Source of the DNA: a bacterium
Lineage (GTDB): Bacteria; Orphanbacterota; Orphanbacteria; Orphanbacterales; Orphanbacteraceae
Length of the DNA stretch: 64,000 nucleotides
Assembly (NCBI GenBank): GCA_025782575.1
Contig: JALGYY010000047.1
Span: forward strand, 14,139-78,138
Direction: 5' to 3'
Shown here: positions 16,575-63,665 of the stretch, one piece after another
How the letters are laid out: each line of letters begins with the position of its first letter
Position numbering within the stretch: position 1 is the stretch's first letter
Notes under the pieces: generated by a model
What the model saw: only the letters and a program-made list of their open reading frames with translations
Told to the model about the DNA's origin: nothing
The model's database searches: none
Position numbers and translations under genes: made by a program

Positions 16575-18181
16575 ACCGCGAATCCATCAAACTCCTCATC
16601 CGGCGATTCGTACTGGCCACATCATTCCCGCCGTTTCTCGGCGTCTATCGATGGGGGTATCGCCTCGTGACAGGGTTGGCGGTCCGTATTTTCAGGCGCT
16701 ATCCGGGAGTTCGGGCCGTATATCTGCGCCGGGGAGGGGCGAAGGGAGCCATAACGCCACTCGTAAGTGATATCGATTTCGCGGTCATCATCGATTCCCT
16801 CACCGAAGACGAAAGTCGTGAGCTTCACGATTCCTACGACCGACTCGCTCGGGTAACCACTCTGCTCGACCGATCGCTCGAGATATACAGCGAAGCACAA
16901 ATGAAGCATCTGTATGAAACGAACGACTATTTTCGCTACCGGTTTGTGGAAGGAAAAGAGACCTGGAAGCTCCTTTATGGGCAGAACGTACTGGAGTGCC
17001 TTCCTGAATGCTCGATGGAGGAGTTGCATGGAGGGTTCGTCAATGAGACCAAAGTCTGGTGGTCTCTTTTTGCGTGGAGATTCTATCACGATAGGAAATA
17101 CAACGACGAAGGGGTGACGAGAAACAGCTTTTGCTTCAAAACAGTGAGCGAGATATTGAAGATGAACCTCGCTCTGAATCACGGCCGGCTGACTTTCGAT
17201 CGAAGTGAGGCGATGCGCGATGCCCTGCCTGACCTTGACCAGGAAGACAGCAGGCTGGTAGAGGACCTTCTCACAATTGAACGGTCGGGCTTTCGGAAGA
17301 ATGACTCCGGGATTCTGGAACGAACCAATCGGTTTCTCATTCGTTACCTGGATCGTTTTTTCAGAGTGCTTCAGGATCACCCCATAGCCGCGTCACGAAA
17401 CGGTGTCACCCAGGTTGTAAGCGGTGCGGGAGACCCGATCTTTCAGTCAAGTGCTGAAAAGGATCATCTGGACCGACTTCGATCTTTCATTCGCGATCGG
17501 TGGGGGGTGAAGGGTTCTGCCACACACGTATCTTCCGGGGCGTTCTTCAATCTGGATGAAATACTCTTTCTGGTCGAAATCGATGCCCGAACGCCGCCGA
17601 GTGTTACAGAGATCGCCGCGCTGAATCGATATCACCAATCGATGGGCGGGGAGCTTTGTTCGAGAGTGAAAATATTTCTACTCACATCGGGTGCTGCGTT
17701 TCAAATCGATACCGAGGATCTTTCTCAAAGCTGGCAGTCCGTTCTGATCCCCGCCTCCAATCCGGACGTATTCGAAATCATTCACAGTCATGCGAGCGAG
17801 GCGGGCATGGGGATGACATCAAGCCGCCGTGTGGTGGCCTGGTCATCACTGGTAGAGCACTTCTTCCGGGAAGAAAAATCGCTCTTCTACGAGCTGATCG
17901 ATCAGCCGTCGATTTACAAGCTCGGAGGACGGGATTTCCTGCGGATCTTCTGGAAGACCGCCCAGCTCGTCGTTCTGAACCGGAGCGCGGCGAGAGGAAC
18001 TGTTGTCTATGCGTTGGCTCCGGACCAGGTGGCGGCGGCACTTGCCGATGAGGGGATCCCCCTTCCGGATCGGCTGGGACGCCTGCAAACCGCCTACGCG
18101 ATCGAGCTGAAGGGGGAGGACGGGGGAGTGGCCCCGCTCGTACCCGAAGCGCTGCGCTGGCTCAAAGAGATTGAATCATGA
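16571..18181 (+). CDS. Nucleotidyltransferase-domain (Pol-beta superfamily) protein, 536 aa, function unknown
   Basis: GGAKGAITPLVSDIDFAVIID matches the minimal NTase motif G[GS]-x9-13-D-x-D. The remaining ~400 aa have no recognised domain. TTG start overlaps the upstream stop (TTGA). Confidence 0.5.
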   Translation: MNRESIKLLIRRFVLATSFPPFLGVYRWGYRLVTGLAVRIFRRYPGVRAVYLRRGGAKGAITPLVSDIDFAVIIDSLTEDESRELHDSYDRLARVTTLLDRSLEIYSEAQMKHLYETNDYFRYRFVEGKETWKLLYGQNVLECLPECSMEELHGGFVNETKVWWSLFAWRFYHDRKYNDEGVTRNSFCFKTVSEILKMNLALNHGRLTFDRSEAMRDALPDLDQEDSRLVEDLLTIERSGFRKNDSGILERTNRFLIRYLDRFFRVLQDHPIAASRNGVTQVVSGAGDPIFQSSAEKDHLDRLRSFIRDRWGVKGSATHVSSGAFFNLDEILFLVEIDARTPPSVTEIAALNRYHQSMGGELCSRVKIFLLTSGAAFQIDTEDLSQSWQSVLIPASNPDVFEIIHSHASEAGMGMTSSRRVVAWSSLVEHFFREEKSLFYELIDQPSIYKLGGRDFLRIFWKTAQLVVLNRSAARGTVVYALAPDQVAAALADEGIPLPDRLGRLQTAYAIELKGEDGGVAPLVPEALRWLKEIES

Positions 18182-18636
18182 GCAATCAGGCGCTTACCAC
18201 ATCTGTGGTCATCGTAACGAAAGACCGGCCTGAGCTTCTGGCGAAGGTACTCGAATCCCTCGTCCCGCAGACCTTGATGCCTGACGAAGTGCTCGTGGTT
18301 GACAACAACTCCAGCCTGTCCTACGGGGATGTAATCGAGCGTTTTGCCCCGAAGCTTCCTCTGCGGATCGTCGTCGAAATGAAGCCGGGGATTCCCCACG
18401 CCAGGAATCGGGGCATTCGAGAAGCGAGTGGGGAGATCATCCTGTTTACAGATGACGATTGTGTGGCGGAAAGAGAATGGGTGGAGAACATGGTAGCGCC
18501 GTTCTTGATGAATCCTCATATCGGCGCGGTGGGAGGCGAGATCCTTTCGACCGAGCGTACAGGAAGCCTGGTTGAGGAATTCTGTGCGGCGGAGACCCTG
18601 ATGCGAATGGGCCGGCCGGAGGAAGGCGGAGCATGA
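18178..18636 (+). CDS. Glycosyltransferase family 2, N-terminal portion (frameshift-split; continues in 18633..19340)
   Basis: VVIVTKDRPELL, LVVDNNSS, FTDDDCV (DxD) and GAVGG form the GT-A N-half. The ORF terminates at TGA 18634-18636, where a GT2 should continue. Confidence 0.6.
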   Translation: MSNQALTTSVVIVTKDRPELLAKVLESLVPQTLMPDEVLVVDNNSSLSYGDVIERFAPKLPLRIVVEMKPGIPHARNRGIREASGEIILFTDDDCVAEREWVENMVAPFLMNPHIGAVGGEILSTERTGSLVEEFCAAETLMRMGRPEEGGA

Positions 18637-19340
18637 TAATCGATATTACCAAGAGCGGATATCGGAAGGGGTACCTGCCGAAGACCGGAGTCGGCGTCTT
18701 TCATCCTTTTTTTGCGACCGCCAATGCCGCGTTCCGGAAGAAGACGCTGGAAGAAGTGGGCGGCTTCGACACGAATTGCGAAACCGGAGAGGACGTGGAC
18801 CTCTCGATTCGGGTGGCTCACGCCGGCTATGAGCTCTGGTTCGAGCCGAAGGCGAGAATCGCACACCACCACCGCTATACATTGCGCGGACTTCTTCGCC
18901 AATGGTTCGACTACGGCTTCGGGCACGCCTATCTCTTTCGGAAACACGATCCCCGGAGGAGGCTCCAGTTTTTTCGGTACGATCTTTCAGACCGCAATCC
19001 GAATCCATTCGGGATCGCCCGAGTTGCCGACATTCCCTGTCCCGTGCCGGGGATGATCTTCTTCAGTAGCTTCCACTTCATGCATGGGTCGATTCTGGCC
19101 GCCATCGTCGGCGCGACTCTTGGTTGGGACAGTTTTGTCGTATGCGCCGCCGCCGGATTTCTGTTGAGCGCCGGCTGGTATTTCGGAATCCGTTTCGACT
19201 GGAAGACACCCGCCCGATCCGTCCTCTTTTCCGGGATCCGCTACGTGGCGGATGCCGCATATGTACTCGGCGGTTTGCTCGGAGGAATCCGGCACGGCAT
19301 GATCTATCTGGAAGCGACTCGAACAAGGAAACGGTCGTGA
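18633..19340 (+). CDS. Glycosyltransferase family 2, C-terminal portion (frameshift-split partner of 18178..18636)
   Basis: FRKKTLEEVGGFDTNCETGEDVDLSIRVAHAGYEL is the GT2 C-half, followed by TM helices. The reading frame is open upstream only back to 18576. Together the two ORFs make one GT2 of about 385 aa interrupted by a -1/+1 shift. Confidence 0.6.
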   Translation: MIIDITKSGYRKGYLPKTGVGVFHPFFATANAAFRKKTLEEVGGFDTNCETGEDVDLSIRVAHAGYELWFEPKARIAHHHRYTLRGLLRQWFDYGFGHAYLFRKHDPRRRLQFFRYDLSDRNPNPFGIARVADIPCPVPGMIFFSSFHFMHGSILAAIVGATLGWDSFVVCAAAGFLLSAGWYFGIRFDWKTPARSVLFSGIRYVADAAYVLGGLLGGIRHGMIYLEATRTRKRS

Positions 19341-22355: not shown

Positions 22356-22946
22356 ATGAGAGGGTCAATAGTCATGAGAGTCGGGAAAATGCAGGTCGCT
22401 GCCATCGCTATCTTTGCGCTTCTCTTCGCGTTCGGGTGCGGTGACGACGAGTCCCCTGTCGGTGCGAACGGCAACGGTATTCCCACCGGAAACCAGGCGC
22501 CGGATTTCGCACTGGCCGATGTCAACTCCTCGTCGGCAACCAATGGTGAAATGGTCTCGCCGCGGGATTACGAAGGAAAAGTATCGGCATGGTACTTCGG
22601 TCGCTCCACCTGAGGTTACTGTCTTAGCCAGTTTGGCTATCTCAACCAGATCCAATCTGAGATCAACGAATCAAAGACGGGCCTCGAAATCCACATCCTG
22701 GGTCTGAACGGCGCAGGCCACGAAGGGGGAAACGGAACAGTCCCCGATTTCGGAACTCTTCCCTGGCTTCAGGATACGGACGAGCAACATGTATGGGAGA
22801 CCTGGTCGGTGACGTACAGAGATGTCGTCATTCTTGATTCTGATAACGAGCCGTTTGCCGTATACAATTTAACGGAAAACGATCTTTCCAGGTCGGAGTA
22901 TCGCGATGCTCTTCGGGCGCTCCTTGATCAGGCAGCCGGAGATTGA
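22356..22946 (+). CDS. TlpA/redoxin-like thiol-disulfide oxidoreductase lipoprotein, predicted selenoprotein (in-frame UGA 22611-22613 read as Sec; UxxC)
   Basis: The track ORF 22356..22613 ends ...KVSAWYFGRST*. The same frame continues with no stop for 110 codons to TGA 22944-22946, giving ...YFGRST-U-GYCLSQFGYL... plus a thioredoxin-fold C-half (VPDFGTLPWLQDTDEQHVWETWSVTYRDVVILDSDNEPFAVYNL). The UGA occupies the first Cys of the CxxC redox motif. Lipoprotein signal ALLFAFGC. Confidence 0.6.
22614..22650 (+). promoter_or_regulatory. Candidate bacterial SECIS hairpin immediately 3' of the UGA
   Basis: GGUU-acugucu-UAGCCA-guu-UGGCUA-ucuc-AACC. Lower 4-bp stem, internal loop, and a 6-bp upper stem starting 12 nt after UGA, with a small G/U-containing apical loop. 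Topology is consistent with bSECIS. Confidence 0.4.
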
Positions 22947-22968: not shown

Positions 22969-24723
22969 ATGCCCCGTATGAGTACCGCTTGGCGCCGCTC
23001 TATCGTTTTGCTCTCCATTCTTTCAGTTGCCGCTCTCTTCGGAGGGTGCGGATCTGACGATGACGGTGTGGTCGGTCCCGGAGGATCCGAACTCGCCCTT
23101 TTCATCAACGAGTTGCTCGCGAACAATTCCACAGGACTTGCTGATCCCGACTTTGGTGAGAAGAGCGATTGGATCGAGATTTATAACGGCGAAGGTGAAG
23201 CGGTCGATATGGGCGGATTCGGGTTGACGGATGATCGTTCCCAACCATTTAAGTGGGTTTTTCCTGCCGGCACGATGATCCCGGCCGGCGGGTTCCTGAT
23301 CGTATGGGCAGATGACGGCGACACGACGGCGATCGCCCATCACGCCAACTTCAAGCTGAGTTCCGGCGGAGAAAAAGCAGTGCTGTTCGATGCCGATGGT
23401 AACGTCGTGGATCTCGTTGAATTCGGCGCGCAGGTGGAAGACATCTCCTACGGACGAACGGCGGACGGCGGAGGCCAGTTCGGCACGTTCACCGTTCCCA
23501 CGCCGGGAGTGACGAATGGTGCCGCCGTGACACCGGCCGCGATTCATATCAACGAGTTCCTAGCGGACAATGAAAACGGAATCGTCGATCCGGATTTCGG
23601 TGAAACGGGTGACTGGGTGGAGCTCTATAACAGTGGAGACCTGTCGGCCAATATCGGGGGTTGGACGATGACGGATGATCTCGAGGATCCGGGGCAGTGG
23701 ACCTTTCCGCCGGGAACTTCAATCGACGGCGGGGGCTTCCTTCTCGTATGGGCCGACAAAAACGACACGTCGGCCGTAGCGCATCACACGAATTTCAAGC
23801 TGAGCTCCGGGGGCGAATCGATCGGACTTTTCGATGGGGCAGGGAAAGTGGTGGACAGCCTCACCTACGGCGAGCAGCAACCAGATGTCTCGTACGGCCG
23901 GATCGAGGATGGCGAATCGGAGTTTGCGGGTTTCGGAAGCCCGACGCCCGGGGAAAGTAACGAGAATTCCACGCCGGACGCGCCCCCCGTCATCCATGCG
24001 GTGTGGATCTCGCCGGCATTCCCGACCGCAGAAGATAGCGTCAGGATCACGGCGATCGTTACGGACGATATGTCACTCGGTCTGGTCAGGCTTTTTCACA
24101 ATATCGGCGGCCAGACCGTGGTCGGAATGACCGAGACGGGGGCCGATACATTCTTTGTAGTGTTACCGCCCCAACCATCCGAAACAGTGGTCGAATACTA
24201 TATGGAGGCGACGGACGAAGCCCTGCAGGTTACGAGCGCCCCATCAGACGCTCCAGCATCTCTGTTCAGTTATCTGGTTGCTTCCGCACCTCCGATGGTG
24301 GTGATCAACGAGTTTCTCGCGAGCAACGACAGCACCAATATCGATCCCGATTTCGCGGACTACGGAGACTGGCTGGAGCTATACAACGCCGGCGCATCTC
24401 CGGTCGATCTCGGCGGGTGGTATCTGACTGATGACCTTGCTGATCCGACATTATGGGAGATTCCTTCAAGTACTTCGCTCGCCGTCGGTGCTCATCTGCT
24501 GATCTGGGCGGATGACGGGGACACCACGGGCATCGCTCTTCACACCAATTTCAAGTTGAAGAGTGGTGGGGAGGAGATCGGGCTCTTCACGGCCGGCCAG
24601 GTACCCATGGATACGCTCACCTACGGTGTCCAGGCGACTGACGTATCGTACGGACGATCAACCGATGGCGGTTCGGAGTGGGAGTTCTTCGACATACCGA
24701 CGCCGGGCGAATCGAACGAATAG
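22969..24723 (+). CDS. Lipoprotein with four tandem lamin-tail-domain (LTD) repeats
   Basis: Lipobox AALFGGC. Four ~130-aa repeats of INEfLA-N...DPDFGE-GDW-ElYN.G...-GGw-LTDD...W-fP-gT-I-GGFL-vWADdgD...A-H-NFKL-S-GGE-igLF...G..VD..tYG. This is the LTD (PF00932) signature. Confidence 0.8.
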   Translation: MPRMSTAWRRSIVLLSILSVAALFGGCGSDDDGVVGPGGSELALFINELLANNSTGLADPDFGEKSDWIEIYNGEGEAVDMGGFGLTDDRSQPFKWVFPAGTMIPAGGFLIVWADDGDTTAIAHHANFKLSSGGEKAVLFDADGNVVDLVEFGAQVEDISYGRTADGGGQFGTFTVPTPGVTNGAAVTPAAIHINEFLADNENGIVDPDFGETGDWVELYNSGDLSANIGGWTMTDDLEDPGQWTFPPGTSIDGGGFLLVWADKNDTSAVAHHTNFKLSSGGESIGLFDGAGKVVDSLTYGEQQPDVSYGRIEDGESEFAGFGSPTPGESNENSTPDAPPVIHAVWISPAFPTAEDSVRITAIVTDDMSLGLVRLFHNIGGQTVVGMTETGADTFFVVLPPQPSETVVEYYMEATDEALQVTSAPSDAPASLFSYLVASAPPMVVINEFLASNDSTNIDPDFADYGDWLELYNAGASPVDLGGWYLTDDLADPTLWEIPSSTSLAVGAHLLIWADDGDTTGIALHTNFKLKSGGEEIGLFTAGQVPMDTLTYGVQATDVSYGRSTDGGSEWEFFDIPTPGESNE

Positions 24724-32546: not shown

Positions 32547-32797
32547 GCGCCGCTCCTCACCGAGGCGCCGCTCCTCACCGAGGCGAACGGTCCTTCTCCC
32601 GGGGGCCGTCTCCGGGGCTCCTGATCGTCGCCCCTCGCCTACTCGCTCGGCCGGCCCGTAGAATCTTCGCACGAAAATGGGCAGGGTCTTGACTAACCCT
32701 GCCCATTTTCAATGCTCTCATTCAACGGGGCCGCCGGCCTCGTCTCGTTAATCCCCCCGGGAGAAGGACCGTTCGCCTCGGTGAGGAGCGGCGCCTA
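32547..32797. repeat. MITE-like palindromic element: 41-nt terminal inverted repeats flanking ~150 bp with a central hairpin
   Basis: Left arm 32547-32605 is gcgccgctcctcaccgaggc[gccgctcctcaccgaggc]gaacggtccttctcccggggg, including an 18-nt tandem duplication. Right arm 32754-32794 is its exact reverse complement. Each arm directly abuts a TAG stop codon (32544-46 on +, 32795-97 on -). Confidence 0.6.
32673..32710. terminator. Bidirectional intrinsic terminator inside the palindromic element
   Basis: gaaaatgggcaggg-tcttgactaa-ccctgcccattttc is a perfect 14-bp stem. An A-tract lies on the 5' side and a T-tract on the 3' side, on both strands. Confidence 0.55.
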
Positions 32798-35272
32798 GCG
32801 GAGCAGTACTATCTTCTGTGTGACAGTTTCGCCGCCTGTTTCGAGGCGTAGAAAGTAGATCCCCGCCGCCACACGACCGTTACCGGAACCCAGGCCGTTC
32901 CATGTAGCCGTATGGCGTCCGGCGGACTGAACGCCGGTTACGAGGCGCGAAACGAGCCGGCCTCGTATGTCGTATACGACAAGACTGACATCGGACGTGG
33001 CGGGCAGATTGTAGACGACGGTCGACTGCGACCGGACCGGGTTCGGACGGATGCTTTCGAAGCGGAGCGGACCGCCACCCAGAGGGGGCGCGTCAGGCGT
33101 GCCGGTCGAGGTCCCCTGCTTCAGCACCAGGAGGCCCATCTGGGGAATGGTGAGAAGAGTAGATTGAGTGAAACCATCGGCCGATATCGCATCGACCGTA
33201 ATCGAAGGATTGGTCAGCCCGTTCCCTTCATATTGCGTCGCCTGGCTGTTAATGATCTCTGTCCAGGTGCCTCCGGCCGGGAGGCCGACGCGATAGTTAT
33301 TCCAGTTTCCGTTGTTGAAATTCGCGATGATGACGAAGACGTTGCCGGCGTTGTCCCAGCGTTGCCACGCGATCACATTCCCGCTCTCGTTCTGATGAAA
33401 TACCTGATGAGATGCGTCTGCCCGGAGCGCGGGGTTCGTGGTGCGCCACGAGATCATTTCTTTGTAGTATTGGAAGATCCCCGCGTAGGTCGTCTTCTTT
33501 GACCAGTCGATCCTGTTCGCCGGGTCGGTGCCGAAGTCAGTATCCTCGAGCCATTCGGATCCCATGAGCATGGCCGGCACACCGGGCGAAAACATCACGA
33601 TGCCCTGAGCCAGCTTCGATCGCCCCTTCGCCCACATATCGTCGTGGGGAAAAGTAGTATCGATTGTCTTAACCAGTCGCTGTCCGCCGCTCGACGGCCA
33701 TGCCTCGTCATGAAGTTCCACATAGTTCGTAACCTTGACGCCGCTGAGATCTACACCGCCGCCGTTGATAATGTTACGAATCTTCCAGATTTCCGGGTCG
33801 CCCAGCGCGGCGTCGAAGATCTCCTCGCGAAGACGATCCGTGAAGTTGTCGTAGTATTGGGAATCGAACCCGGCGCCTCCGGTACCGGTTGACCGCGTGA
33901 CCCAGCTGTCATCGGGTAACTGCTCTGCGATCGAAACCTTGTTTGCCCATCGCCAGTCGATCAGATCGTTGAACTCCTGCATGAGTGACCAACCTGACGC
34001 GTCCTGAGGCGGGATATTCATGAAATCGGTCGCATCCATTCGGAACCCGTCGACATGGTATTCCTCGAGCCAGTGAAGGGCACTGTGCAGAAAATAGTCG
34101 CGCACATTCTGGTTGTCGAAATCTGCCTGATCACCCCAGGGGGTACCCACGGCCGGATTGTCGAAGTAGATCTGGTTGCCGTCGTAGAACCAGAGGAAGT
34201 TGTCGGTCGATGAAAAGTGATTCCAGAGAATATCAAGTAACACCGCGATCCCGTGATTGTGAAACGAATCGATCATCGCCTTGCACTCGTCCGGTGTCCC
34301 GTAAACCCAATCGGGGGCGAACTCGGTGACCGGGTTATACCCGGCGGAGAGATCGCCCGCAAACTCGGTGATCGGGTTGAGCATCACAGCGTTGACACCG
34401 AGATCGGCAAGCTGATAAACGCGATTCGCGACGTCGAGATAACCGGACGGGTGAGCGACTGTTCCTTGTGGATCATTCCGCCCTGCAAACGATCCGACGT
34501 GAAGCTGGTAAATCACCATTTCTTCAAGGTCGGGCGTGTCGAAATCCGCGAGTGCCCATGAATACGCAAAGGGATCCTGGATGATCGAATTCTGATTGGC
34601 GGCAGGGTTCAGCCCGCGGGCACGAGGGTCCGGTTTCCAGAGATTGTTGTCGAAATAATACTTGTATTCATCGAGAGGTGACGCGCCCGTCACATGCGCA
34701 ATGTAGTGTTCCCCCACTTTGAATAAGGGATTCGTTGTCGCCCACGCGTTGAACTTTCCCCGCACGCGGGCGGACGTAGGGTTCGGCGCCCATACTTTGA
34801 AAACGACGCCGCTGCTGGTCGGCGTCGCACCGAGCGGCGCATGGTCGAGAGTGAGGAAGTTGACCACATAGCCGCTGTCTAGCGGGACGGCATCAGACAT
34901 TCCGTTGATGCTGTTGTAGTCGGTATCGGTTCCGTCGGTCAGTTCGAAGTAATACTTTGCGATTCCCGATCCGGTCAGCGGCACCTGGGCCGACCAGATG
35001 TCGTAAGGGCCCCGGCCCCCTGCGAGTGATCCTGAAAGAGTGTCGAGAAGGCCGCCGTCATCTACGAAAACCTGCAGAGCCGTGATGTCATTGGCCCACG
35101 TCTGGATTCGCACTTCGAACGATTCGGACGAAATCGGTGCGAGTGGCCTCCGGTCCTGCCAGGGAATGTGCGAGACACCGTTCCACTCGACATTGTTGTC
35201 TGGAGCGGCTGCAAACAGGGTCGTGGCACCCACACAGGCGGCCAGACAGAACAGAAAGGACTTTCGTAGCAT
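32795..35272 (-). CDS. GH13 alpha-amylase-family enzyme with N-terminal CBM48-like domain and C-terminal T9SS sorting domain
   Basis: Signal peptide. GVVFKVWAPNPTSARVRGKFNAW (CBM48/E-set), HVDGFRMDATDFM (GH13 region II), NYVELHDE. C-terminal ...AAGIYFLRLETGGETVTQKIVLLR is a Por/T9SS CTD. Confidence 0.8.
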   Translation of the reverse strand: MLRKSFLFCLAACVGATTLFAAAPDNNVEWNGVSHIPWQDRRPLAPISSESFEVRIQTWANDITALQVFVDDGGLLDTLSGSLAGGRGPYDIWSAQVPLTGSGIAKYYFELTDGTDTDYNSINGMSDAVPLDSGYVVNFLTLDHAPLGATPTSSGVVFKVWAPNPTSARVRGKFNAWATTNPLFKVGEHYIAHVTGASPLDEYKYYFDNNLWKPDPRARGLNPAANQNSIIQDPFAYSWALADFDTPDLEEMVIYQLHVGSFAGRNDPQGTVAHPSGYLDVANRVYQLADLGVNAVMLNPITEFAGDLSAGYNPVTEFAPDWVYGTPDECKAMIDSFHNHGIAVLLDILWNHFSSTDNFLWFYDGNQIYFDNPAVGTPWGDQADFDNQNVRDYFLHSALHWLEEYHVDGFRMDATDFMNIPPQDASGWSLMQEFNDLIDWRWANKVSIAEQLPDDSWVTRSTGTGGAGFDSQYYDNFTDRLREEIFDAALGDPEIWKIRNIINGGGVDLSGVKVTNYVELHDEAWPSSGGQRLVKTIDTTFPHDDMWAKGRSKLAQGIVMFSPGVPAMLMGSEWLEDTDFGTDPANRIDWSKKTTYAGIFQYYKEMISWRTTNPALRADASHQVFHQNESGNVIAWQRWDNAGNVFVIIANFNNGNWNNYRVGLPAGGTWTEIINSQATQYEGNGLTNPSITVDAISADGFTQSTLLTIPQMGLLVLKQGTSTGTPDAPPLGGGPLRFESIRPNPVRSQSTVVYNLPATSDVSLVVYDIRGRLVSRLVTGVQSAGRHTATWNGLGSGNGRVAAGIYFLRLETGGETVTQKIVLLR

Positions 35273-44215: not shown

Positions 44216-46216
44216 CTAGCGGAAGTGCACGACCCGTCCTTTTCGTTCATCGTTTCCGACGGCGACACGCCAGAAGTAGACACCAGACCGGACTTCAGCG
44301 CCACTGTCATCGCGGCCGTCCCATGTGGTTTCATAGGCGCCGGGTGACTTCGATTCGTTCACGAGGTTTCGAACGCGCCGGCCGGCTACATTGTAAATCG
44401 CCACTTCCACCGATGCGCTCGACACGCCGCTGACGGAGTAGGCGAGACGGGTGCTCTCACGGAACGGGTTGGGTGCGGCGCCGAACAGCGTTGATATCGG
44501 CCGACCCGCGGTTCCCTCAGTAATGCCGGTGGCAGGGCCCGTTACTGAATAGCCTCTCTCCGTGAACCGGTCAATCATTGCAGTGATATCCGAACCGGAG
44601 TAATTCATATTGATAGCCGCCTGAAGCATAGCCTGCGCGGCGTCTTCCTGGTTCGTCGATGAGTTCGTCATTGCGAGCCCTTCCAGGCAGGCTTTGTCGG
44701 TCAGCTCGCGGCCGATGTCATTCCAGATTCTCATGAGACCGGTCGACCAGATCTGGCCGTCCGTATGAATCTGGTTGATCAGGCCACCCGGATAAATAGC
44801 CCCGTAGTTTGTCTTACGCCCGCCCCAGAACGGATTGTGCCCGTCCCAGCTGAAGACCCACTGGTATTCCGGCGTGCCGGGCACCCACTGGCCGAGGCTC
44901 CGGCTGTAGGAAGCGGCCATGTAGTCGCCGAAGCCTTCGCTCAGCCCGTTCACCTGAGAGAGGCTCCCCCCTGTCAACCAGTCGTGAATGCCGTGGCCCA
45001 GTTCGTGGATCACCACATCGGCATCCTCGGAATCATCGACCCCTCCTTCGCCGAACGAGATTCGGCCGGATCCGCTCAAATAGTACGAGTTGTCGGAGCC
45101 GCTCAGCCCATGCGGATCGAACTGGACGCCGCCGCCGTACTGGTAGGGAGAAAGGGTCAGCCCAAGTGTAGTGTTGATGTAGCGCATGATGTTATCGATA
45201 TGCCAGTAACAGAGCACTGCCTCAAACCCGTTGTCCTGCCGATTGAAAAGAAAGTCAGGGCCGGCCTGCGCGAAAAGCCCGCGGAAAGGATTCTCGAAAT
45301 CGATGACCTCCGCGTAGGGCCCCTCGAGCTTGTACTGCCCGCCTGAAAACAGTATGTCGGGGAGATTCTTCAGAAACCGCTCGGCATCGAGCTGGGCATT
45401 TGTGGAGTCGCTGTTATCCGCGTAGTTTCCGCCGTAGGAAACCTGGGCGCTTGATAGCGGATCGGGATCCCAAAGATAGCCCGTTCCGGTTGCGTAAAAC
45501 GCCTTATCCTCCGCACGAAAAATCTCTCCCGTATGGGCGTCAAAAAGTATTTCCCACTCGCCGATCGGTCCGTCAACCGCGTGGAGAGTCATCTTCCACG
45601 CTAGTCGGGGAGCATCACCGTTCGGATAGACGACCAGCTCGGTTTTTTCGTAAGAGAGTGCACCTTGAATTTCCAGGTATTCCAGCGCGGCGGTGCGTGC
45701 CACGGCAGCGGAAAGGGAAGGGTGGGTGGAAGGAAGAAGAGCGGCGTCTACCGATTCCACGCCGTTCATCACGAAGACCACTGAATTGTCATGGTCTATC
45801 GTAATGGCGACATCGGCGCCGTAAACCGGGACGCCGCCTGCGTGTTGCACGAATCGCACGACCGTGCCTGCCTGACCGGCGCGTGTCATCCTGTGGACCA
45901 TCTCGTCGAGTGCGCGCTCGCTGATGTGCAGGGTTTCCCTCGCCTCGCGTAGATATTGACGTGCCATCTCGCGGGGTGATTCCCCGGTTACCTCGTGATC
46001 GAGGTTGTAGAGCGTGATCGGTCTGCCCGTCTCAGTGTTTACTCTCGCGTTTCCGTCCAGGTGAGTCGGTGCCATCCTCTCGGACAGGGGGATTCGCTCG
46101 AGCATGTCCATCTTGAGGGACGCTGTTTTCGGTCGTTTTGCCTCGGATTCTCCAGGCAATAAGAGAGCTGCGGCGAACAGGGCGGCCGCGCACATCAGGA
46201 TGCGACGTTTCATCAT
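44216..46216 (-). CDS. Secreted zinc metallopeptidase (HExxH; M4/M36-like) with C-terminal T9SS sorting domain
   Basis: Signal peptide MMKRRILMCAAALFAAALLLPGESEA. VVIHELGHGIHD (HExxH) and downstream EGFGDY (third zinc ligand, Glu). C-terminal ...SGVYFWRVAVGNDERKGRVVHFR is a T9SS CTD. Confidence 0.7.
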   Translation of the reverse strand: MMKRRILMCAAALFAAALLLPGESEAKRPKTASLKMDMLERIPLSERMAPTHLDGNARVNTETGRPITLYNLDHEVTGESPREMARQYLREARETLHISERALDEMVHRMTRAGQAGTVVRFVQHAGGVPVYGADVAITIDHDNSVVFVMNGVESVDAALLPSTHPSLSAAVARTAALEYLEIQGALSYEKTELVVYPNGDAPRLAWKMTLHAVDGPIGEWEILFDAHTGEIFRAEDKAFYATGTGYLWDPDPLSSAQVSYGGNYADNSDSTNAQLDAERFLKNLPDILFSGGQYKLEGPYAEVIDFENPFRGLFAQAGPDFLFNRQDNGFEAVLCYWHIDNIMRYINTTLGLTLSPYQYGGGVQFDPHGLSGSDNSYYLSGSGRISFGEGGVDDSEDADVVIHELGHGIHDWLTGGSLSQVNGLSEGFGDYMAASYSRSLGQWVPGTPEYQWVFSWDGHNPFWGGRKTNYGAIYPGGLINQIHTDGQIWSTGLMRIWNDIGRELTDKACLEGLAMTNSSTNQEDAAQAMLQAAINMNYSGSDITAMIDRFTERGYSVTGPATGITEGTAGRPISTLFGAAPNPFRESTRLAYSVSGVSSASVEVAIYNVAGRRVRNLVNESKSPGAYETTWDGRDDSGAEVRSGVYFWRVAVGNDERKGRVVHFR

Positions 46217-46383
46217 TAGAATATTCCCTCGGGAGCGGGTTTTCGAAATCAGGCAGAACCGGTCTGGTACTGGGAGGCCCTCATTATAGAGGAAAAGGGC
46301 GCGGAAATCCACAAGAAGAAAAACGGGACAAATAGAGATCGCCGGTCTGCGGAACGGGCGGGCCGTCTGGTCCTACTGATTTT

Positions 46384-48137: not shown

Positions 48138-49943
48138 ATGCGTCTCCGTTTGAAGAGTTCAGCTGGACACCTGACGACAATTGCTCTCGGATTTCTGTTC
48201 CTGCTTGCCTGGGGCGGTTCGGCCGCGGCCGGCACCGATGCTTGGCGGGACAAGATCCAGGCGGGCCTCCTGGAAGAGGCTACGACTCTGGAGACCGAGT
48301 TTCTCGTCTTTCTCGGCGAGCAGGCTGATCTTTCGGCGGCGGCCCTGATGGGGACGAAATTAGAGAAAGGTCGCTACGTTTTCGAAACGCTGAGCCGTAC
48401 GGCCGATCTTACACAGGCCTCTCTTCTGAATGTACTCGAGGGGGAAGGGGTGCCACATCGACCCTACTGGGTGGCCAATATGGTCTGGGTCAAAGGGGAC
48501 GCTACGCTCGTAGAACGAATGGCGGAGCGAGCGGATGTGCGGGGCGTTTACGCGAATCCGATCGTCCAGTTTGAACAGCCTGTGGCGATCGAGGCGGGCG
48601 CACCGAAGGTGGCGGGAATCGAATGGAACATCTCCCAGGTGAACGGCCCGAACGTCTGGGCCATGGGGAACACCGGACAGGGGACGGTGGTCGGGGGAAT
48701 CGACACGGGCTATGACTGGGATCACCCGGCCGTTATCGATCAGTATCGTGGTTGGGACGGTGTCTCGGCCGATCATAATTACAATTGGCACGACGCGATT
48801 CACTCGGGGAGCGGCGGGTCGTGCGGGCTTGACTCGGCTGTTCCTTGCGATGACCACGGACATGGTACTCACACGATGGGGACCATGGTGGGAGATGACG
48901 GCGGCAGCAATCAGATCGGCCTCGCTCCGGGCGCGAAGTGGGTCGGTTGCCGTTGCATGGATGTGGGCTTCGGTACGCCTGCGCGCTACACGGAGTGTCT
49001 CGAGTGGATGATCGCCCCCACCGATCTGAACGACATGTTCCCCGACCCGTCGAAAGCACCCGACGTGATCAATAATTCGTGGAGCTGCCCCCCTAGCGAG
49101 GGGTGCACCGATCCACTCGTCATGCAGACAGTGGTTGAGAATGTGAAGGCGGCGGGAATCGTCGTTGTAGTGAGTGCGGGGAATTCGGGATCGGCTTGCA
49201 GCACGGTCGAAGATCCGATCGCTATTTATGAAGCATCGTTTTCAGTCGGTGCGACTGACGACAATGACGACATTGCAGGCTTCAGCAGCCGCGGTCCTGT
49301 CACTTCGGACGGCAGCAATCGTATGAAACCTCAGGTGAGCGCGCCGGGAGTGATCGTCCGTTCCTGCGTTCCGGGTACCGGTTATACCAGCCTGAGCGGG
49401 ACGAGCATGGCAGGGCCACACGTGGCCGCGGCGGCTGCGCTTGTGATCGCCGCGAATCCCGTTCTCCAGGGGCAGGTCGACAATGTCGAAAGCATTCTCG
49501 AGCAGACGGCGCTTGCCCGTACCACTACCCAGACTTGTGGCGGTGTTCCGGGAACGAGCATTCCGAATAACACATACGGCTGGGGGCGGATTGACGCGCT
49601 GGCCGCTGTAAATGAAGCAATCAGCCAGGCGGTTTCGGTGGATGGCGCAAACGCCGTTCCCGCCCGCTATTCTCTCTCCGCAGCCATGCCGAATCCCTTC
49701 AACCCGCGCACTACCATTCGATTCGACATCCCGGAGCGTAGCGATGTTTCGATCCGTGTGTTTGATGTGGTCGGCCGTGAAGTGCGCCCCCTGATCAGCA
49801 GAACGAACCTCGAGGCAGGTCGGCACTCCGTCGATTGGAACGGTCTCGACAGTCGTGGCGACGACGTACCGTCAGGCATCTACTTCTATCGCATGAACGC
49901 CGGCGAATTCCAGTCGACCGGCCGGATGGTTCTGGTTCGGTGA
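48138..49943 (+). CDS. Subtilisin-like serine peptidase (S8) with C-terminal T9SS sorting domain
   Basis: Catalytic triad motifs VVGGIDTGYDWDHPA (D), HGTHTMGTMVG (H), GTSMAGPHVAAAAAL (S). C-terminal ...SGIYFYRMNAGEFQSTGRMVLVR is a T9SS CTD. Confidence 0.85.
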   Translation: MRLRLKSSAGHLTTIALGFLFLLAWGGSAAAGTDAWRDKIQAGLLEEATTLETEFLVFLGEQADLSAAALMGTKLEKGRYVFETLSRTADLTQASLLNVLEGEGVPHRPYWVANMVWVKGDATLVERMAERADVRGVYANPIVQFEQPVAIEAGAPKVAGIEWNISQVNGPNVWAMGNTGQGTVVGGIDTGYDWDHPAVIDQYRGWDGVSADHNYNWHDAIHSGSGGSCGLDSAVPCDDHGHGTHTMGTMVGDDGGSNQIGLAPGAKWVGCRCMDVGFGTPARYTECLEWMIAPTDLNDMFPDPSKAPDVINNSWSCPPSEGCTDPLVMQTVVENVKAAGIVVVVSAGNSGSACSTVEDPIAIYEASFSVGATDDNDDIAGFSSRGPVTSDGSNRMKPQVSAPGVIVRSCVPGTGYTSLSGTSMAGPHVAAAAALVIAANPVLQGQVDNVESILEQTALARTTTQTCGGVPGTSIPNNTYGWGRIDALAAVNEAISQAVSVDGANAVPARYSLSAAMPNPFNPRTTIRFDIPERSDVSIRVFDVVGREVRPLISRTNLEAGRHSVDWNGLDSRGDDVPSGIYFYRMNAGEFQSTGRMVLVR

Positions 49944-50372: not shown

Positions 50373-51191
50373 ATGCTGAACATTTATTGGCGCCAAGCGT
50401 GTCGGACATTACCGGTGGCGATGGCACTGTCTGTTTCATTACTAGCGGTTTCACAGGCACATGCCGGCTTCCCCGACACGGGCCAGCAGAATCTGGAAGT
50501 CGATCGCTCGGACGGAAGCATTATTGCCTGGGCTTCCGGCGTGGCCGGGTTCGATCGAGGGCCGGTCGACTACCAGAACCCGGGGCTCGGTGATGCGTCG
50601 TTCGGTACGGATACCGACCCTCTCGGATCGTCAGGCACCCCGTTCAGCCTGGGGGACGGCGGATGGATCACGTTCACATTCGACGCGCCCATACTGAACG
50701 GTGCCGGGGCGGACTTCGTCGTGTTCGAAAACGCTTTCGAGTTCGGCGGACTGGTATTCATGGAACTCGGCTTTGTCGAAGTGAGCAGCGACGGTGCCCT
50801 GTTCTCGCGCATGCCGGCGCTCTCCAGAAAAGCAGCCCCCACAGGTCCGTTCGACGGCTCCGATCCTGCCGACTTCTATAACCTGGCTGGAAACTTTGTG
50901 GGTGGGACGGCGTTCGACCTGGAAGATCTGATTACGGCAGGTGATCCGAATGTTGTCGGCGGCCAGGTTGATCTGACAGCAATTACGCATATACGCGTAG
51001 TCGATGGGGTGGGAGACATCGTCGGTCCGGGCGCGACAACCGACTGCCTGAACCGGCCGGTGTCCGACGCCTACCCGACCGCGTTCGCGAGCGGTGGGTT
51101 CGACGCTACCGGGGTGGGCGTGATTCACTCCGTCCCGAGCACGTCTACAGAATCTGTCAGCTGGGGGGATGTGAAGAGCATTTTCCGCTAA
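50373..51191 (+). CDS. Secreted hypothetical protein (putatively B12-riboswitch controlled)
   Basis: AGGAGG RBS. Signal peptide with AHA-G cleavage (VAMALSVSLLAVSQAHA). Gly/Asp-rich beta-type sequence with no recognised domain. Monocistronic; the next gene is convergent. Confidence 0.5.
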   Translation: MLNIYWRQACRTLPVAMALSVSLLAVSQAHAGFPDTGQQNLEVDRSDGSIIAWASGVAGFDRGPVDYQNPGLGDASFGTDTDPLGSSGTPFSLGDGGWITFTFDAPILNGAGADFVVFENAFEFGGLVFMELGFVEVSSDGALFSRMPALSRKAAPTGPFDGSDPADFYNLAGNFVGGTAFDLEDLITAGDPNVVGGQVDLTAITHIRVVDGVGDIVGPGATTDCLNRPVSDAYPTAFASGGFDATGVGVIHSVPSTSTESVSWGDVKSIFR

Positions 51192-60782: not shown

Positions 60783-63563
60783 TTAGCGGATCATTACGAT
60801 CCGATGTGTTACCGTCTGATTCCCGGCACGATGGCGTGCGAGATAAACCCCCGCCGCCAGTGCTCTGCCCCGTTCATCCCGTCCATCCCAGAGTAGCACG
60901 TTCTCCCCGGCTGATGCGCCTCTCCTTTCCAGGTGCCTCACTTCTCTTCCCGCCGGCGTGTAGATCGTAACCGCCAGATCAGCACTTCCGGGAAGATGAA
61001 AACGGAATCCGACGGACTGCTGGAATGGACTGGGGTAGGCATGCATGAAACGAGGCTTTCCCGCAGCAGCATTTGAAAGGTCATCGGAATCAAGCGATGC
61101 GATCAGCGTGAAGTGCTTCGTCAGACCGGTAGCGGCGACCAAGACCGAACCGTCAGGATCGACCGGGACGCGCGACCCGGTATCCTTGTTGACCCATGTA
61201 AGTTTTAACTCTTCCGGCAAATCAAAGCTGATAAACCGAATGAGGACCTCGCCCGGTCCTTCTACGCCGCTGAGCACGATCTCCCATTTATTCGAACGGG
61301 CGGGAGGTACGAAGTCGTGGACGTAATCACCGCTCATCGCTCCCCAATTGTGGTGCGGTAGATAGAGCCGTAGTCCGCCATCCGGGGGGTGAGGGGGGAG
61401 TGCTCGGCTGAGGGGATTCCATTTATTACCGGCGTCATTTGATACGCCGACGAGAACGGCAGCACCGACCGCTTCATTCGTTGTCGCCCGAATACTGATC
61501 GCCCAATCCGCATCAACCGGTTTGGAGACGGGCATCGGCTCTATGGATCGATACTTCTGCACGGCGTCGATTGGAAAGATCAGATGAGCGGGGCCATCTG
61601 TCAGTTTGCGTATCCAGAACCCCACACCACGCCCGAAGCCACTGAGATCGAGATACTGATCGCCGAACCAGGATTGTACCGTCCGATCAGTCAGATCGTT
61701 TTCGCTGCTCGTAACCTGGACCGTGTCGATGCCGTCGGTCACGAGCAGGTCATTCGTCAATATTGTTCCGTTATGAGGGAATCCGATCTGGTTCCAGGCG
61801 GCCGCGCCGCCGGGACCGCTCGCGAGCGAGACCGAGACGTCTCCTTCCGGGTAGAATCCCCATGGCGTAAAGAGGGAATCGACAGAACCGTCGGTTATCA
61901 TCCAGTAGCCGGCGCCCGTTTCTGTCATGTCGGTTGCCGATACCAGATCTTCATAGGCTTCATCGGCCGGACTCCAATGCCCCACTTTCCAGGTCTTGTC
62001 GTTGAACGGACCAAGAGTATCCATGATGGCGGTGATGCTTCGCTCACCTGCAGTCTCGGGGGCGAGTGGAAACGAAACCATATCCCATCGACGTTCGACG
62101 AGCGGGAAGATGATCGCGTTCGGAGTAACAGCGGGGGCGTTCATCACAGTGAGATCGGTCGTGTCGGCACACCCGGCACGGCTGGCGATAATCGATGTCG
62201 TCCCTTCCGTAAGGCCGAGCGCCTCCCCTTCCGACGAGATTGTCGCGATCGAAATACTCGTTGACTTCCAGATCGAGGCGACTTCGCTCTCGAAATCGGC
62301 ATCGGGCCACACGCCGCTCCGGAACCGCCCGGTTGCCGTGTACTCTAGAATCTCATCGGTTTCGATCGTGTCGTTCGCCGGTTCAACGGTGAGCTCTAGC
62401 AATTCAGCCTCAAACAGGTATTTCAGGTCGCCGTTCCCCTTGTCGTAGTAGGTGATCTGGGCGAATCCCAAAGTGTCGAGACGGAGGGTCACGATCTCGC
62501 CGACATCTCCCTCGGTATCGAAATCAAAGTCCTCCCATTGATCGTCGGTGATCCGGACGGCGAGATTGAGATCAGCCTCGGGAAGGACATAGTAAGCGAT
62601 AATCGGTCCGAACCGGCTCACGTCGATTGAAACGGGTCGGCTGTCTCCCCATATGCCCGCGTCGTCAACCAGTTCCGGATTGAAATCACTCTCCCGTGCC
62701 GCGAAGTAGAGATTGGCCTGGCCGGGGATCATGTCTTCTGTCGATTCAACCCAGGCGATGTAGACATCATTCTGATCGTCGATAGCGATGGAGGACCAGC
62801 CGATACCGTTGTCCGACGGCAGGTCGAGCGTGGCGACTCTCACTCGTTCCCAGTCGCCGCTCTCGTTGGTGACGTAGTGAACGTTGATGGAGTCGTCGTA
62901 GATATTCGTGTAGCTGATGTGCGCCTTACCCTCACTGTCGAGTACAAGCTGACACTCGAACCCGGCGAATTCCGACGAGTCGACAGTCTGATGGATAAAG
63001 AGGTCGCCATTCAGGAACGCGTACTCGAGGTTCAGGCTGTCGTTGTCGCAATAGGCGATGTGTGGATTGCCCTGTTCGTCCACAGTCAATGAGGACCATG
63101 ATCCTTCTGTGAGAGTATCGGCGGAAGAGACAAGCGTGCGGACCCAGTCCCCCGGTCGGTTTCGTACGGCGTACCAGAGCTCAGCATCTGCACGGTTCTC
63201 TTCGGTCACGTAGTAGGTGACATGGGGAATACCGCCCGAATCTACGGCGATTGAGTTGTACCAGCCGGCCTCACCGGCCGTCTGAATGATTTCCGGTGGT
63301 GTGAATTGAAGAGTCGACTTTTCGTAGCGTGTGTAGAAGATCGATCCGCTCTCTTCGTCGAAGTAGACGATGTGAGCCCTGCCCTCGCTATCGAGATCCA
63401 TAGCGGACCAGCGGCCGGCATTGCCTGCGGTGACGAGCGACTCGGTAAAGAACAGTGTGAACCCGCCGCCCGCGTGGACGGGGGCCGGAAACAGTATCGC
63501 AATCACCCCGATCAGGCAGGCGATTCCGGACGACACATATCGATTTCGCTCACACTTAAACAT
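60783..63563 (-). CDS. Large T9SS-secreted surface protein: N-terminal beta-propeller-like repeats, Big_2 domain, C-terminal Por sorting domain
   Basis: Signal peptide (start taken at the ATG giving MFKCERNRYVSSGIACLIGVIAILFPAPVHA). Repeated H[IV]xY blades (HIVYFDEE, HVTYYVTEE, HIAYCDND, HISYTNIY, YIAWVEST). Big_2-like segment (TVEPANDTIETDEILEYTATG...). C-terminal ...AAGVYLARHRAGNQTVTHRIVMIR. Confidence 0.65.
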   Translation of the reverse strand: MFKCERNRYVSSGIACLIGVIAILFPAPVHAGGGFTLFFTESLVTAGNAGRWSAMDLDSEGRAHIVYFDEESGSIFYTRYEKSTLQFTPPEIIQTAGEAGWYNSIAVDSGGIPHVTYYVTEENRADAELWYAVRNRPGDWVRTLVSSADTLTEGSWSSLTVDEQGNPHIAYCDNDSLNLEYAFLNGDLFIHQTVDSSEFAGFECQLVLDSEGKAHISYTNIYDDSINVHYVTNESGDWERVRVATLDLPSDNGIGWSSIAIDDQNDVYIAWVESTEDMIPGQANLYFAARESDFNPELVDDAGIWGDSRPVSIDVSRFGPIIAYYVLPEADLNLAVRITDDQWEDFDFDTEGDVGEIVTLRLDTLGFAQITYYDKGNGDLKYLFEAELLELTVEPANDTIETDEILEYTATGRFRSGVWPDADFESEVASIWKSTSISIATISSEGEALGLTEGTTSIIASRAGCADTTDLTVMNAPAVTPNAIIFPLVERRWDMVSFPLAPETAGERSITAIMDTLGPFNDKTWKVGHWSPADEAYEDLVSATDMTETGAGYWMITDGSVDSLFTPWGFYPEGDVSVSLASGPGGAAAWNQIGFPHNGTILTNDLLVTDGIDTVQVTSSENDLTDRTVQSWFGDQYLDLSGFGRGVGFWIRKLTDGPAHLIFPIDAVQKYRSIEPMPVSKPVDADWAISIRATTNEAVGAAVLVGVSNDAGNKWNPLSRALPPHPPDGGLRLYLPHHNWGAMSGDYVHDFVPPARSNKWEIVLSGVEGPGEVLIRFISFDLPEELKLTWVNKDTGSRVPVDPDGSVLVAATGLTKHFTLIASLDSDDLSNAAAGKPRFMHAYPSPFQQSVGFRFHLPGSADLAVTIYTPAGREVRHLERRGASAGENVLLWDGRDERGRALAAGVYLARHRAGNQTVTHRIVMIR

Positions 63564-63665
63564 GGTAGGCGAATGGTAACCGCTCCGCCCCGGGCTGTCC
63601 AGAGCCTGCGAAGGGGAGACAGTCCCGGGATTTCGATTTTTCATTTTGGCGGTCGGGTACCCGGC

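Follow-up and report, generated by a model that had tools for sequence, protein, structure and literature searches.

A predicted lipid-anchored UxxC selenoprotein of the thioredoxin-fold family NF053656, encoded across an in-frame UGA codon

Among the selenoproteins predicted in bacteria, no class is more common than that of UxxC proteins with a thioredoxin fold. The described systems closest to the gene reported here are the ResA/TlpA/DsbE (CcmG) proteins (cd02966, including the Etrx lipoproteins), the BCP/AhpC-TSA peroxiredoxins, the UxxC selenoprotein groups predicted earlier, and the family NF053656.1 (redoxin_TUGYCR), which is defined as “TUGYCR motif thioredoxin fold (seleno)protein” in NCBIfam release 20.0 (June 2026). 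The predicted UxxC selenoproteins tabulated in a review and in the GOS survey include a “Prx-like thiol:disulfide oxidoreductase” (PF00578), a “thiol-disulfide isomerase-like” group (cd02966) and a “Redoxin family protein” group (PF08534), the last of which corresponds to “Prx-like 3” of the GOS survey (PMC13188914, PMC2398784). These earlier groups are like NF053656 in having a Trx/Prx-like fold, a SECIS element immediately after the UGA codon, Cys homologues and a mainly metagenomic discovery. NF053656 may be the same as the “Prx-like 3”/“Redoxin family” UxxC group (PMC2398784). It is missing from the table of selenoproteins in the May 2026 review (PMC13188914). Our literature search found no paper on the NF053656 family, nor any experimentally characterised member.

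The gene is located on the forward strand of a 64-kb window, a term used here for the whole stretch of DNA that was analysed. Specifically, the reading frame of 22356-22946 (+) meets a TGA at 22611-22613 after ...KVSAWYFGRST and then runs through 110 further sense codons to a second TGA at 22944-22946. Re-translation reproduced the coordinates of the frame, the TGA and its continuation that had been given in the preliminary description. When the UGA is read as selenocysteine (Sec, U), the translated motif is S-T-U-G-Y-C (WYFGRST-U-GYC). The full selenoprotein coding sequence is assigned to 22374-22946 (+), i.e. 191 codons from ATG 22374 through UGA 22611, with ATG 22356 as an alternative start. 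ATG 22374 is more likely to be the start codon than ATG 22356 because of the public gene call and signal-peptide logic; residue numbers in this text (Cys28, Sec86, Cys89, Arg155 and the domain 49-192) are nevertheless counted from ATG 22356. In the public annotation the gene extends from 22374 to the UGA, and the public protein collection for the NCBI contig (188,367 bp) holds only the resulting 79-aa product, which agrees with the earlier forecast that the gene would be mis-annotated as a truncated ORF. In the half after the TGA, there is no in-frame ATG, GTG or TTG ahead of a GTG at ~22809. For this reason no ORF of 50 aa or longer is listed there, and the conserved ILGxN and LPWLQD segments could be translated only via read-through of the TGA. 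An arrangement of two separate genes around TGA 22611-22613 was rejected. The practical outcome is a correction of the annotation, both for the truncated 79-aa record and for relatives that are split at the UGA.

The joined protein matched NF053656.1 with a score of 206.6 bits (cut-off 100) and an E-value of 1.4e-61. The match covers model positions 2-145 of 146 and straddles the UGA. The NF053656 (redoxin_TUGYCR) thioredoxin-fold domain comprises residues 49-192 (22500-22931, +), and the true stop codon TGA (22944-22946, +) is situated four codons past residue 192, where the model stops. The same model was also matched by 13 of 13 aligned relatives. The window gene is a new member of a family already curated at NCBI as a selenoprotein/Cys-protein family, with which it agrees in its T-U-G-Y-C motif, in its predicted thioredoxin fold and in the way Sec alternates with Cys. 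Five of the six positions of the T-U/C-G-Y-C-R motif are kept, whereas the final Arg, which is part of the motif name, is Leu in the window protein (TUGYCL), and one outer pair of the SECIS stem is lost with this change (U-U at 22624/22640). The thioredoxin-fold C-terminal half that had been proposed to follow the TGA is borne out by the completion of the NF053656 model across the UGA, and this half is conserved among relatives. Because the family has already been described by the NCBI curators, the find is correct but ordinary; since the UxxC thioredoxin-fold class is so common and a curated model exists, it contains nothing surprising to a selenoprotein specialist. In the comparison of the joined protein with Pfam, AhpC-TSA was the best match with a score of 21.8 (gathering score 26), followed by Redoxin with 21.4 (gathering score 26.6), both covering only the N-terminal half and spanning the motif, and the SCO match was likewise under its gathering score. 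As all scores are below gathering, the protein is not a formal member of the Redoxin, AhpC-TSA or SCO families.

The codon at 22611-22613 (+), which corresponds to the putative Sec86 at the N-terminal position of UxxC, is represented by either Cys or TGA in homologues. A protein search yielded 13 relatives, with Cys at the Sec column in 6 and TGA in 7. The 6 Cys-containing relatives are full-length and have the motif as CGYC, CPYC, CDYC or CHEC. Another 6 are C-terminal fragments that begin at the first Met past the motif, and in each case a short in-frame ORF upstream ends in TGA at the Sec column. The thirteenth relative, P0001 (L136 305-895), has Trp in the database protein and TGA in the contig. 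As the L136 contig carries TGA, the Trp is attributed to a gene call with an alternative code. The seven TGA-containing relatives were checked on their own contigs (L001-L008 and L136). A separate observation is that protein-database entries of the “UxxC to WxxC” type can conceal selenoproteins, as the P0001 entry does. The second motif residue, the putative resolving Cys89 of U-G-Y-C (22620-22622, +), is invariant in the alignment of homologues (alignment A2).

The Sec column was further surveyed in metagenomes. A DNA pattern search, in which the third base was left free (TGN), retrieved at least 120 loci, and the codon was TGA in 119 and TGC in 1 of 120 among the matches listed, with the qualification that the pattern required the QFG codons and thereby favoured Sec forms. 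All told, over 125 independent loci with homologues, from many environments, share a TGA at exactly this position, far beyond what chance would produce. A less biased profile search, which covered 1.84 billion cluster representatives, gave 283 clusters (50% identity) at E<=1e-30. Of the 146 top matches that were new (representatives of 50%-identity clusters), at least 104 were fragments starting from just past the Sec column and ~30 were full-length Cys forms; the database relatives as a whole are mostly C-terminal fragments split at the UGA. The Cys forms were found in Planctomycetaceae and Myxococcota MAGs. The homologues thus contain Cys in some members and TGA in others at one and the same column, which is the pattern that the preliminary description had proposed to look for.

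A SECIS-like hairpin, UAGCCA-GUU-UGGCUA, follows the UGA at 22625-22639 (+). It is composed of 6 bp and a 3-nt GUU loop in the window sequence (the stem being given as 5–7 bp overall), with an 11-nt spacer after the UGA and a distance of 17 nt from the UGA to the loop. The minimum free energy (MFE) of the window sequence, calculated for the UGA plus 39 nt, was −9.7 kcal/mol. The published bSECIS model specifies a loop of 3–9 nt with G in the first position, a stem of 4–16 bp, a UGA-to-loop distance of 16–37 nt and an MFE of −7.5 or lower, and the 22625-22639 hairpin satisfied all of these constraints (PMC13188914). An MFE of −7.5 or lower was also obtained for 97% of 119 distinct Sec-form sequences among the matches listed. 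In the 119 Sec-form loci among the matches listed, 90.3% of the stem cells were paired, compared with 28–47% when the partner was slid by 1–3 columns, and the number of double-change cells was 104 as against 29.4 ± 4 in shuffles, where the observed score was reached in 0 of 500. Three stem pairs had 23–50 double changes each, and one pair occurred as five standard pair types (again among the matches listed). The metagenome search pattern placed no constraint on the covarying columns, whereas it fixed the loop columns by construction.

The codons that form the stem vary in a coordinated manner. In the same 119 Sec-form loci among the matches listed, Ser AGC pairs with Gly GGC (64 cases), Ala GCC with GGG (12 cases), Ile ATC with GGA (8 cases), Arg CGT with Tyr TAC (21 cases) and Arg CGA with Phe TTC (16 cases). 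Because the choice among synonymous codons tracks the pairing partner, the covariation of the stem is not a protein-level effect. The Cys-form genes have neither the hairpin nor the QFG peptide, and the “SQFGY” motif of the family is therefore largely an imprint of the SECIS RNA. The family offers an unusually clean natural case in which a SECIS RNA dictates the amino acids as well as the synonymous codons of a coding segment. The search for a SECIS element thus located a hairpin that lies at the canonical distance behind the UGA, fits the bSECIS model and covaries. Together with the Sec/Cys pairing at the first Cys of CxxC, it supports, at the level of sequence comparison, the assignment of the gene as a genuine UxxC selenoprotein in which UGA 22611-22613 is read as Sec, as the preliminary description had predicted.

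Other interpretations of the codon were weighed against these data. That gene callers end the ORF at this TGA and that a 79-aa product alone is present in the public record would be accounted for by a genuine premature stop, arising from a pseudogene or from a sequencing or assembly error, with the downstream half as an untranslated relic. However, the TGA occupies one column in all of the more than 125 independent loci with this codon, conservation at the protein level extends over the downstream half, which completes the family model, and a covarying hairpin is located behind the codon. We consider a premature stop to be extremely unlikely, and a pseudogene or sequencing error is effectively refuted by the comparative data. 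The UGA could otherwise be decoded under a reassigned code (UGA as Trp or Gly, tables 4/25) or by SECIS-independent near-cognate read-through, so that residue 86 would be Trp, Cys or Gly. Homologues swap TGA only with Cys at this column and the structure-constrained hairpin at SECIS distance is kept in TGA forms only, both of which argue against such decoding, although one JGI gene call of the homologue P0001 did give Trp. Moreover, TGA is the commonest terminator in the window, being the stop of 17 of 36 Pfam-supported ORFs, and the GC content of the window (57.6%) is unlike that of table-4/25 lineages. On these two grounds UGA is not globally reassigned and the code is standard; a reassigned genetic code was rejected because of the 17 of 36 supported ORFs that end in TGA.

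A further point in favour of alternative decoding is that the Sec machinery was unseen within the 64-kb window. Pfam scans of its ~46 ORFs detected no selA, selB, selD, CcdA or DsbD, and Rfam and ARAGORN detected no tRNA in the window (and so no tRNA-Sec/selC), a cobalamin riboswitch being the sole match. ARAGORN likewise detected no tRNA gene in 46 related loci (a subset of L001-L131, several hundred kb in total); the absence of tRNAs from the 46 loci and the window may be due to chance or to a limitation of the run. A search of the window for further ORFs that continue past a TGA in a CxxU/UxxC-like context gave nothing convincing beyond this gene. Taken with the evidence above, decoding of the UGA as anything other than Sec is judged to be very improbable. 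The preferred reading, which we hold with high confidence, is that a single gene spans 22374-22946 and encodes an NF053656 thioredoxin-fold oxidoreductase that is exported and anchored by lipid, with the UGA being recoded as Sec via the hairpin.

The fold was examined with P0002, a Cys homologue that is 53% identical to the window protein. The AlphaFold2 model of P0002 had a pLDDT of 90.4 and a pTM of 0.82. A Foldseek search of this model against the PDB gave ResA (1su9) as the top match with an E-value of 3e-10 and a target TM score of 0.82, followed by Geobacter thioredoxin-family proteins, DsbE, pneumococcal Etrx lipoproteins, CcmG and Sco, while the peroxiredoxins Bcp and Tpx were ranked lower. 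In the predicted structure, the Sec-equivalent Cys63 is placed after the strand 53-59 and opens the helix 64-81, the classical site of the nucleophile. The model of this Cys homologue supports a thioredoxin fold for the window protein. A profile search for solved structures by sequence returned a spurious flagellin-repeat match and sub-significant matches to ResA and GPx7, and nothing else.

The window protein shares with ResA/TlpA/DsbE the fold, as judged from the P0002 model, and an N-terminal PDFxLxD β-hairpin. In both, the redox motif is at the start of helix α-1, with Sec on Cys74 of ResA, and an anchor outside the cytoplasm, as in these reductases, is predicted for the window protein. 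Judged from the model, the CxxC-type motif is at the N-terminus of helix α-1 and is accompanied by the N-terminal hairpin and central insert of the TlpA type, as would be expected for a TlpA/ResA/DsbE-like protein. The alignment of the Sec column with ResA Cys74 was obtained by hhalign and by a weak HMMER alignment, the latter corroborating the provisional ResA reference sequence only in part. In contrast to these reductases, the window protein has Sec in place of the attacking Cys and UGYC rather than CxPC, the window gene has no CcdA/DsbD or cytochrome-maturation genes nearby, and the similarity is below the Pfam thresholds. In addition, the position of the cis-Pro is apparently occupied by an invariant Arg in NF053656, a difference that is provisional.

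This residue, Arg155 in Y-R-D-V-V-I-L-D (22818-22820, +), is invariant in the homologue alignments and was placed by hhalign at the cis-Pro of ResA and the Arg of BCP. In the hhalign comparison with ResA (90% probability), Arg155 fell on the cis-Pro and Cys89 on the second Cys of CEPC. In that with E. coli BCP (64% probability), Arg155 coincided with the catalytic Arg, Cys89 with the peroxidatic Cys and Sec86 with the Thr of TxxC. Where TlpA/ResA have the cis-Pro, the family thus seems to have an invariant Arg, like the peroxiredoxins, and we treat this replacement as a lead and not as proof because both the ResA and the BCP reference sequences are provisional. In the provisional BCP alignment, the window protein resembles the BCP/AhpC-TSA peroxiredoxins in a conserved Arg before the xxFLID strand (YRDVVILD in the window), in a Cys that aligns with the peroxidatic one and in a similar N-terminal PxF, whereas the Thr of TxxC is Sec, PxxxT is absent and the Pfam match is sub-threshold.

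These features bear on the type of reaction. The same selenoprotein could act as a peroxiredoxin or sulfenate reductase rather than as a protein-disulfide reductase of the TlpA/ResA type, in which case peroxides or sulfenic acids would be the cell-surface substrates that Sec86/Cys89 reduces. The positions of Arg155, Cys89 and Sec86 in the hhalign comparison with BCP, the placement of Arg155 on the ResA cis-Pro, and AhpC-TSA as the best, though sub-threshold, Pfam match would suit this activity, as would the “Prx-like 3” UxxC group of the GOS survey, which has weak pfam08534 similarity and may be NF053656 (PMC2398784). On the other hand, the BCP alignment reached a probability of only 64% and both reference sequences are provisional, the PxxxTxxC motif is absent, and the top structural matches are the ResA, DsbE and Etrx reductases, with Bcp and Tpx lower. 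A peroxiredoxin-like activity is therefore regarded as possible but rather unlikely. We are more doubtful still of a broader proposal, which sees in NF053656 a catalytic type of its own and more than a set of Sec versions of TlpA. Such proteins would be exported hybrids, overwhelmingly dependent on selenium, with a UxxC motif of the thioredoxin type and, at the cis-Pro site, the Arg of peroxiredoxins, and they would carry out an as yet undescribed extracellular redox reaction, e.g. peroxide or sulfenate reduction. On this view, the conserved S-Q-F-G-Y peptide would reflect the SECIS RNA rather than a need of the protein. Within that proposal, NF053656 proteins would often be tethered by lipid, dockerin or PEP-CTERM anchors, or be fused to giant surface proteins.

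The N-terminus of the window protein was read by eye as a lipoprotein signal peptide, MRVGKMQVAAIAIFALLFAFG followed by the lipobox Cys (22374-22439, +; Cys codon 22437-22439). It has a positive n-region, a hydrophobic core and the lipobox A-F-G-C, which fits a PROSITE-style lipobox and is in line with the lipoprotein signal noted earlier. Lipoprotein signals are also seen in relatives, as are Planctomycete extracellular N-termini and dockerin/PEP-CTERM tails, and in some relatives the domain is at the end of giant surface proteins. By these sequence features, the NF053656 family is predicted to be consistently extracytoplasmic. Its members are mostly Sec forms, are predicted to be exported, and come from marine, soil, sediment and bioreactor metagenomes. 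A family that is large (283 clusters), mostly Sec-dependent and exported therefore points to a substantial, uncharacterised role of selenium in the extracytoplasmic space. The domain is fused to very different surface architectures. A Cys-form domain is located at the C-terminus of the giant extracellular proteins P0213 (1609 aa) and P0183 (957 aa), and in locus L092 (1461-4695) 1078 residues follow the UGA. A 612-aa protein, P0139, contains at least four tandem redoxin domains, and its ORF extends from just past one Sec column to ...WFFGLSS before another. Its internal copies have the degenerate motifs ATQTRDRD, ATDTAC and ATDPAC, and P0139 may be a multi-domain, multi-Sec polyprotein.

The analyses above establish the signature of recoding (the Sec/Cys pair and the covarying SECIS), the membership in NF053656, the fold and the use of the standard code. 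How the selenoprotein is exported, how its catalytic cycle runs, which way the electrons flow and what its substrate and reductant are is inferred in the following scheme, in which SelB/SECIS-directed insertion of Sec, export, lipid anchoring, attack by Sec86 and resolution by Cys89 are the most likely steps. The hairpin at 22625-22639, which lies within the L-S-Q-F-G-Y codons, would serve as the bacterial SECIS element and would bring SelB and its bound Sec-tRNA(Sec) to a ribosome that has paused at this codon. The product would be exported and then lipidated at Cys28. Sec86, at the N-terminus of helix α-1 in the predicted fold, would occupy the position of the attacking Cys of ResA/TlpA/thioredoxin and make the nucleophilic attack on a substrate in its oxidised form (a protein disulfide, a sulfenate or a peroxide). 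Cys89 would resolve the Sec86 adduct to form an internal selenenylsulfide, which an outside reductant would then re-reduce.

The neighbours of the gene in the window have unrelated functions, namely SMP-30/gluconolactonase, an AIM24-family protein, an LTD-repeat lipoprotein, prolyl oligopeptidase and a ZIP transporter. The lipoprotein with three lamin-tail (LTD) domains (22970-24723, +) starts about 23 nt past the stop codon of the selenoprotein gene and is probably co-transcribed with it; the pairing of the two genes is not conserved in the related loci. Clustering of the neighbourhoods of 54 loci of at least 4 kb revealed no conserved partner or reductant gene.

Several other features of the window were recorded. 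The cobalamin riboswitch (RF00174, 50043-50219, +) scored 81.2 bits over its full length and lies just upstream of the ORF 50373-51191, which encodes 272 aa without a Pfam match and may be an unrecognised gene for B12-related uptake or binding. A family-2 glycosyltransferase (18178-19340, +) is split into the ORFs 18178-18636 and 18633-19340, which overlap at ATGA and match the N-terminal and C-terminal parts of the GT2 profile, respectively; the split could stem from a frameshift, mark a pseudogene or reflect two genuine genes. Four secreted hydrolases have FlgD-Ig / Por_Secre_tail (type IX secretion) C-termini and are encoded at 32795-35272 (−), 44216-46312 (−), 48138-49943 (+) and 60783-63644 (−), which hints at an FCB-group lineage as the source; homologues of the glutamine synthetase, 66–73% identical and from assorted MAGs, were uninformative about the taxonomy. 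These four FlgD-Ig / Por_Secre_tail proteins comprise an alpha-amylase, an M36-like peptidase, an S8 subtilase and a BNR-repeat protein.
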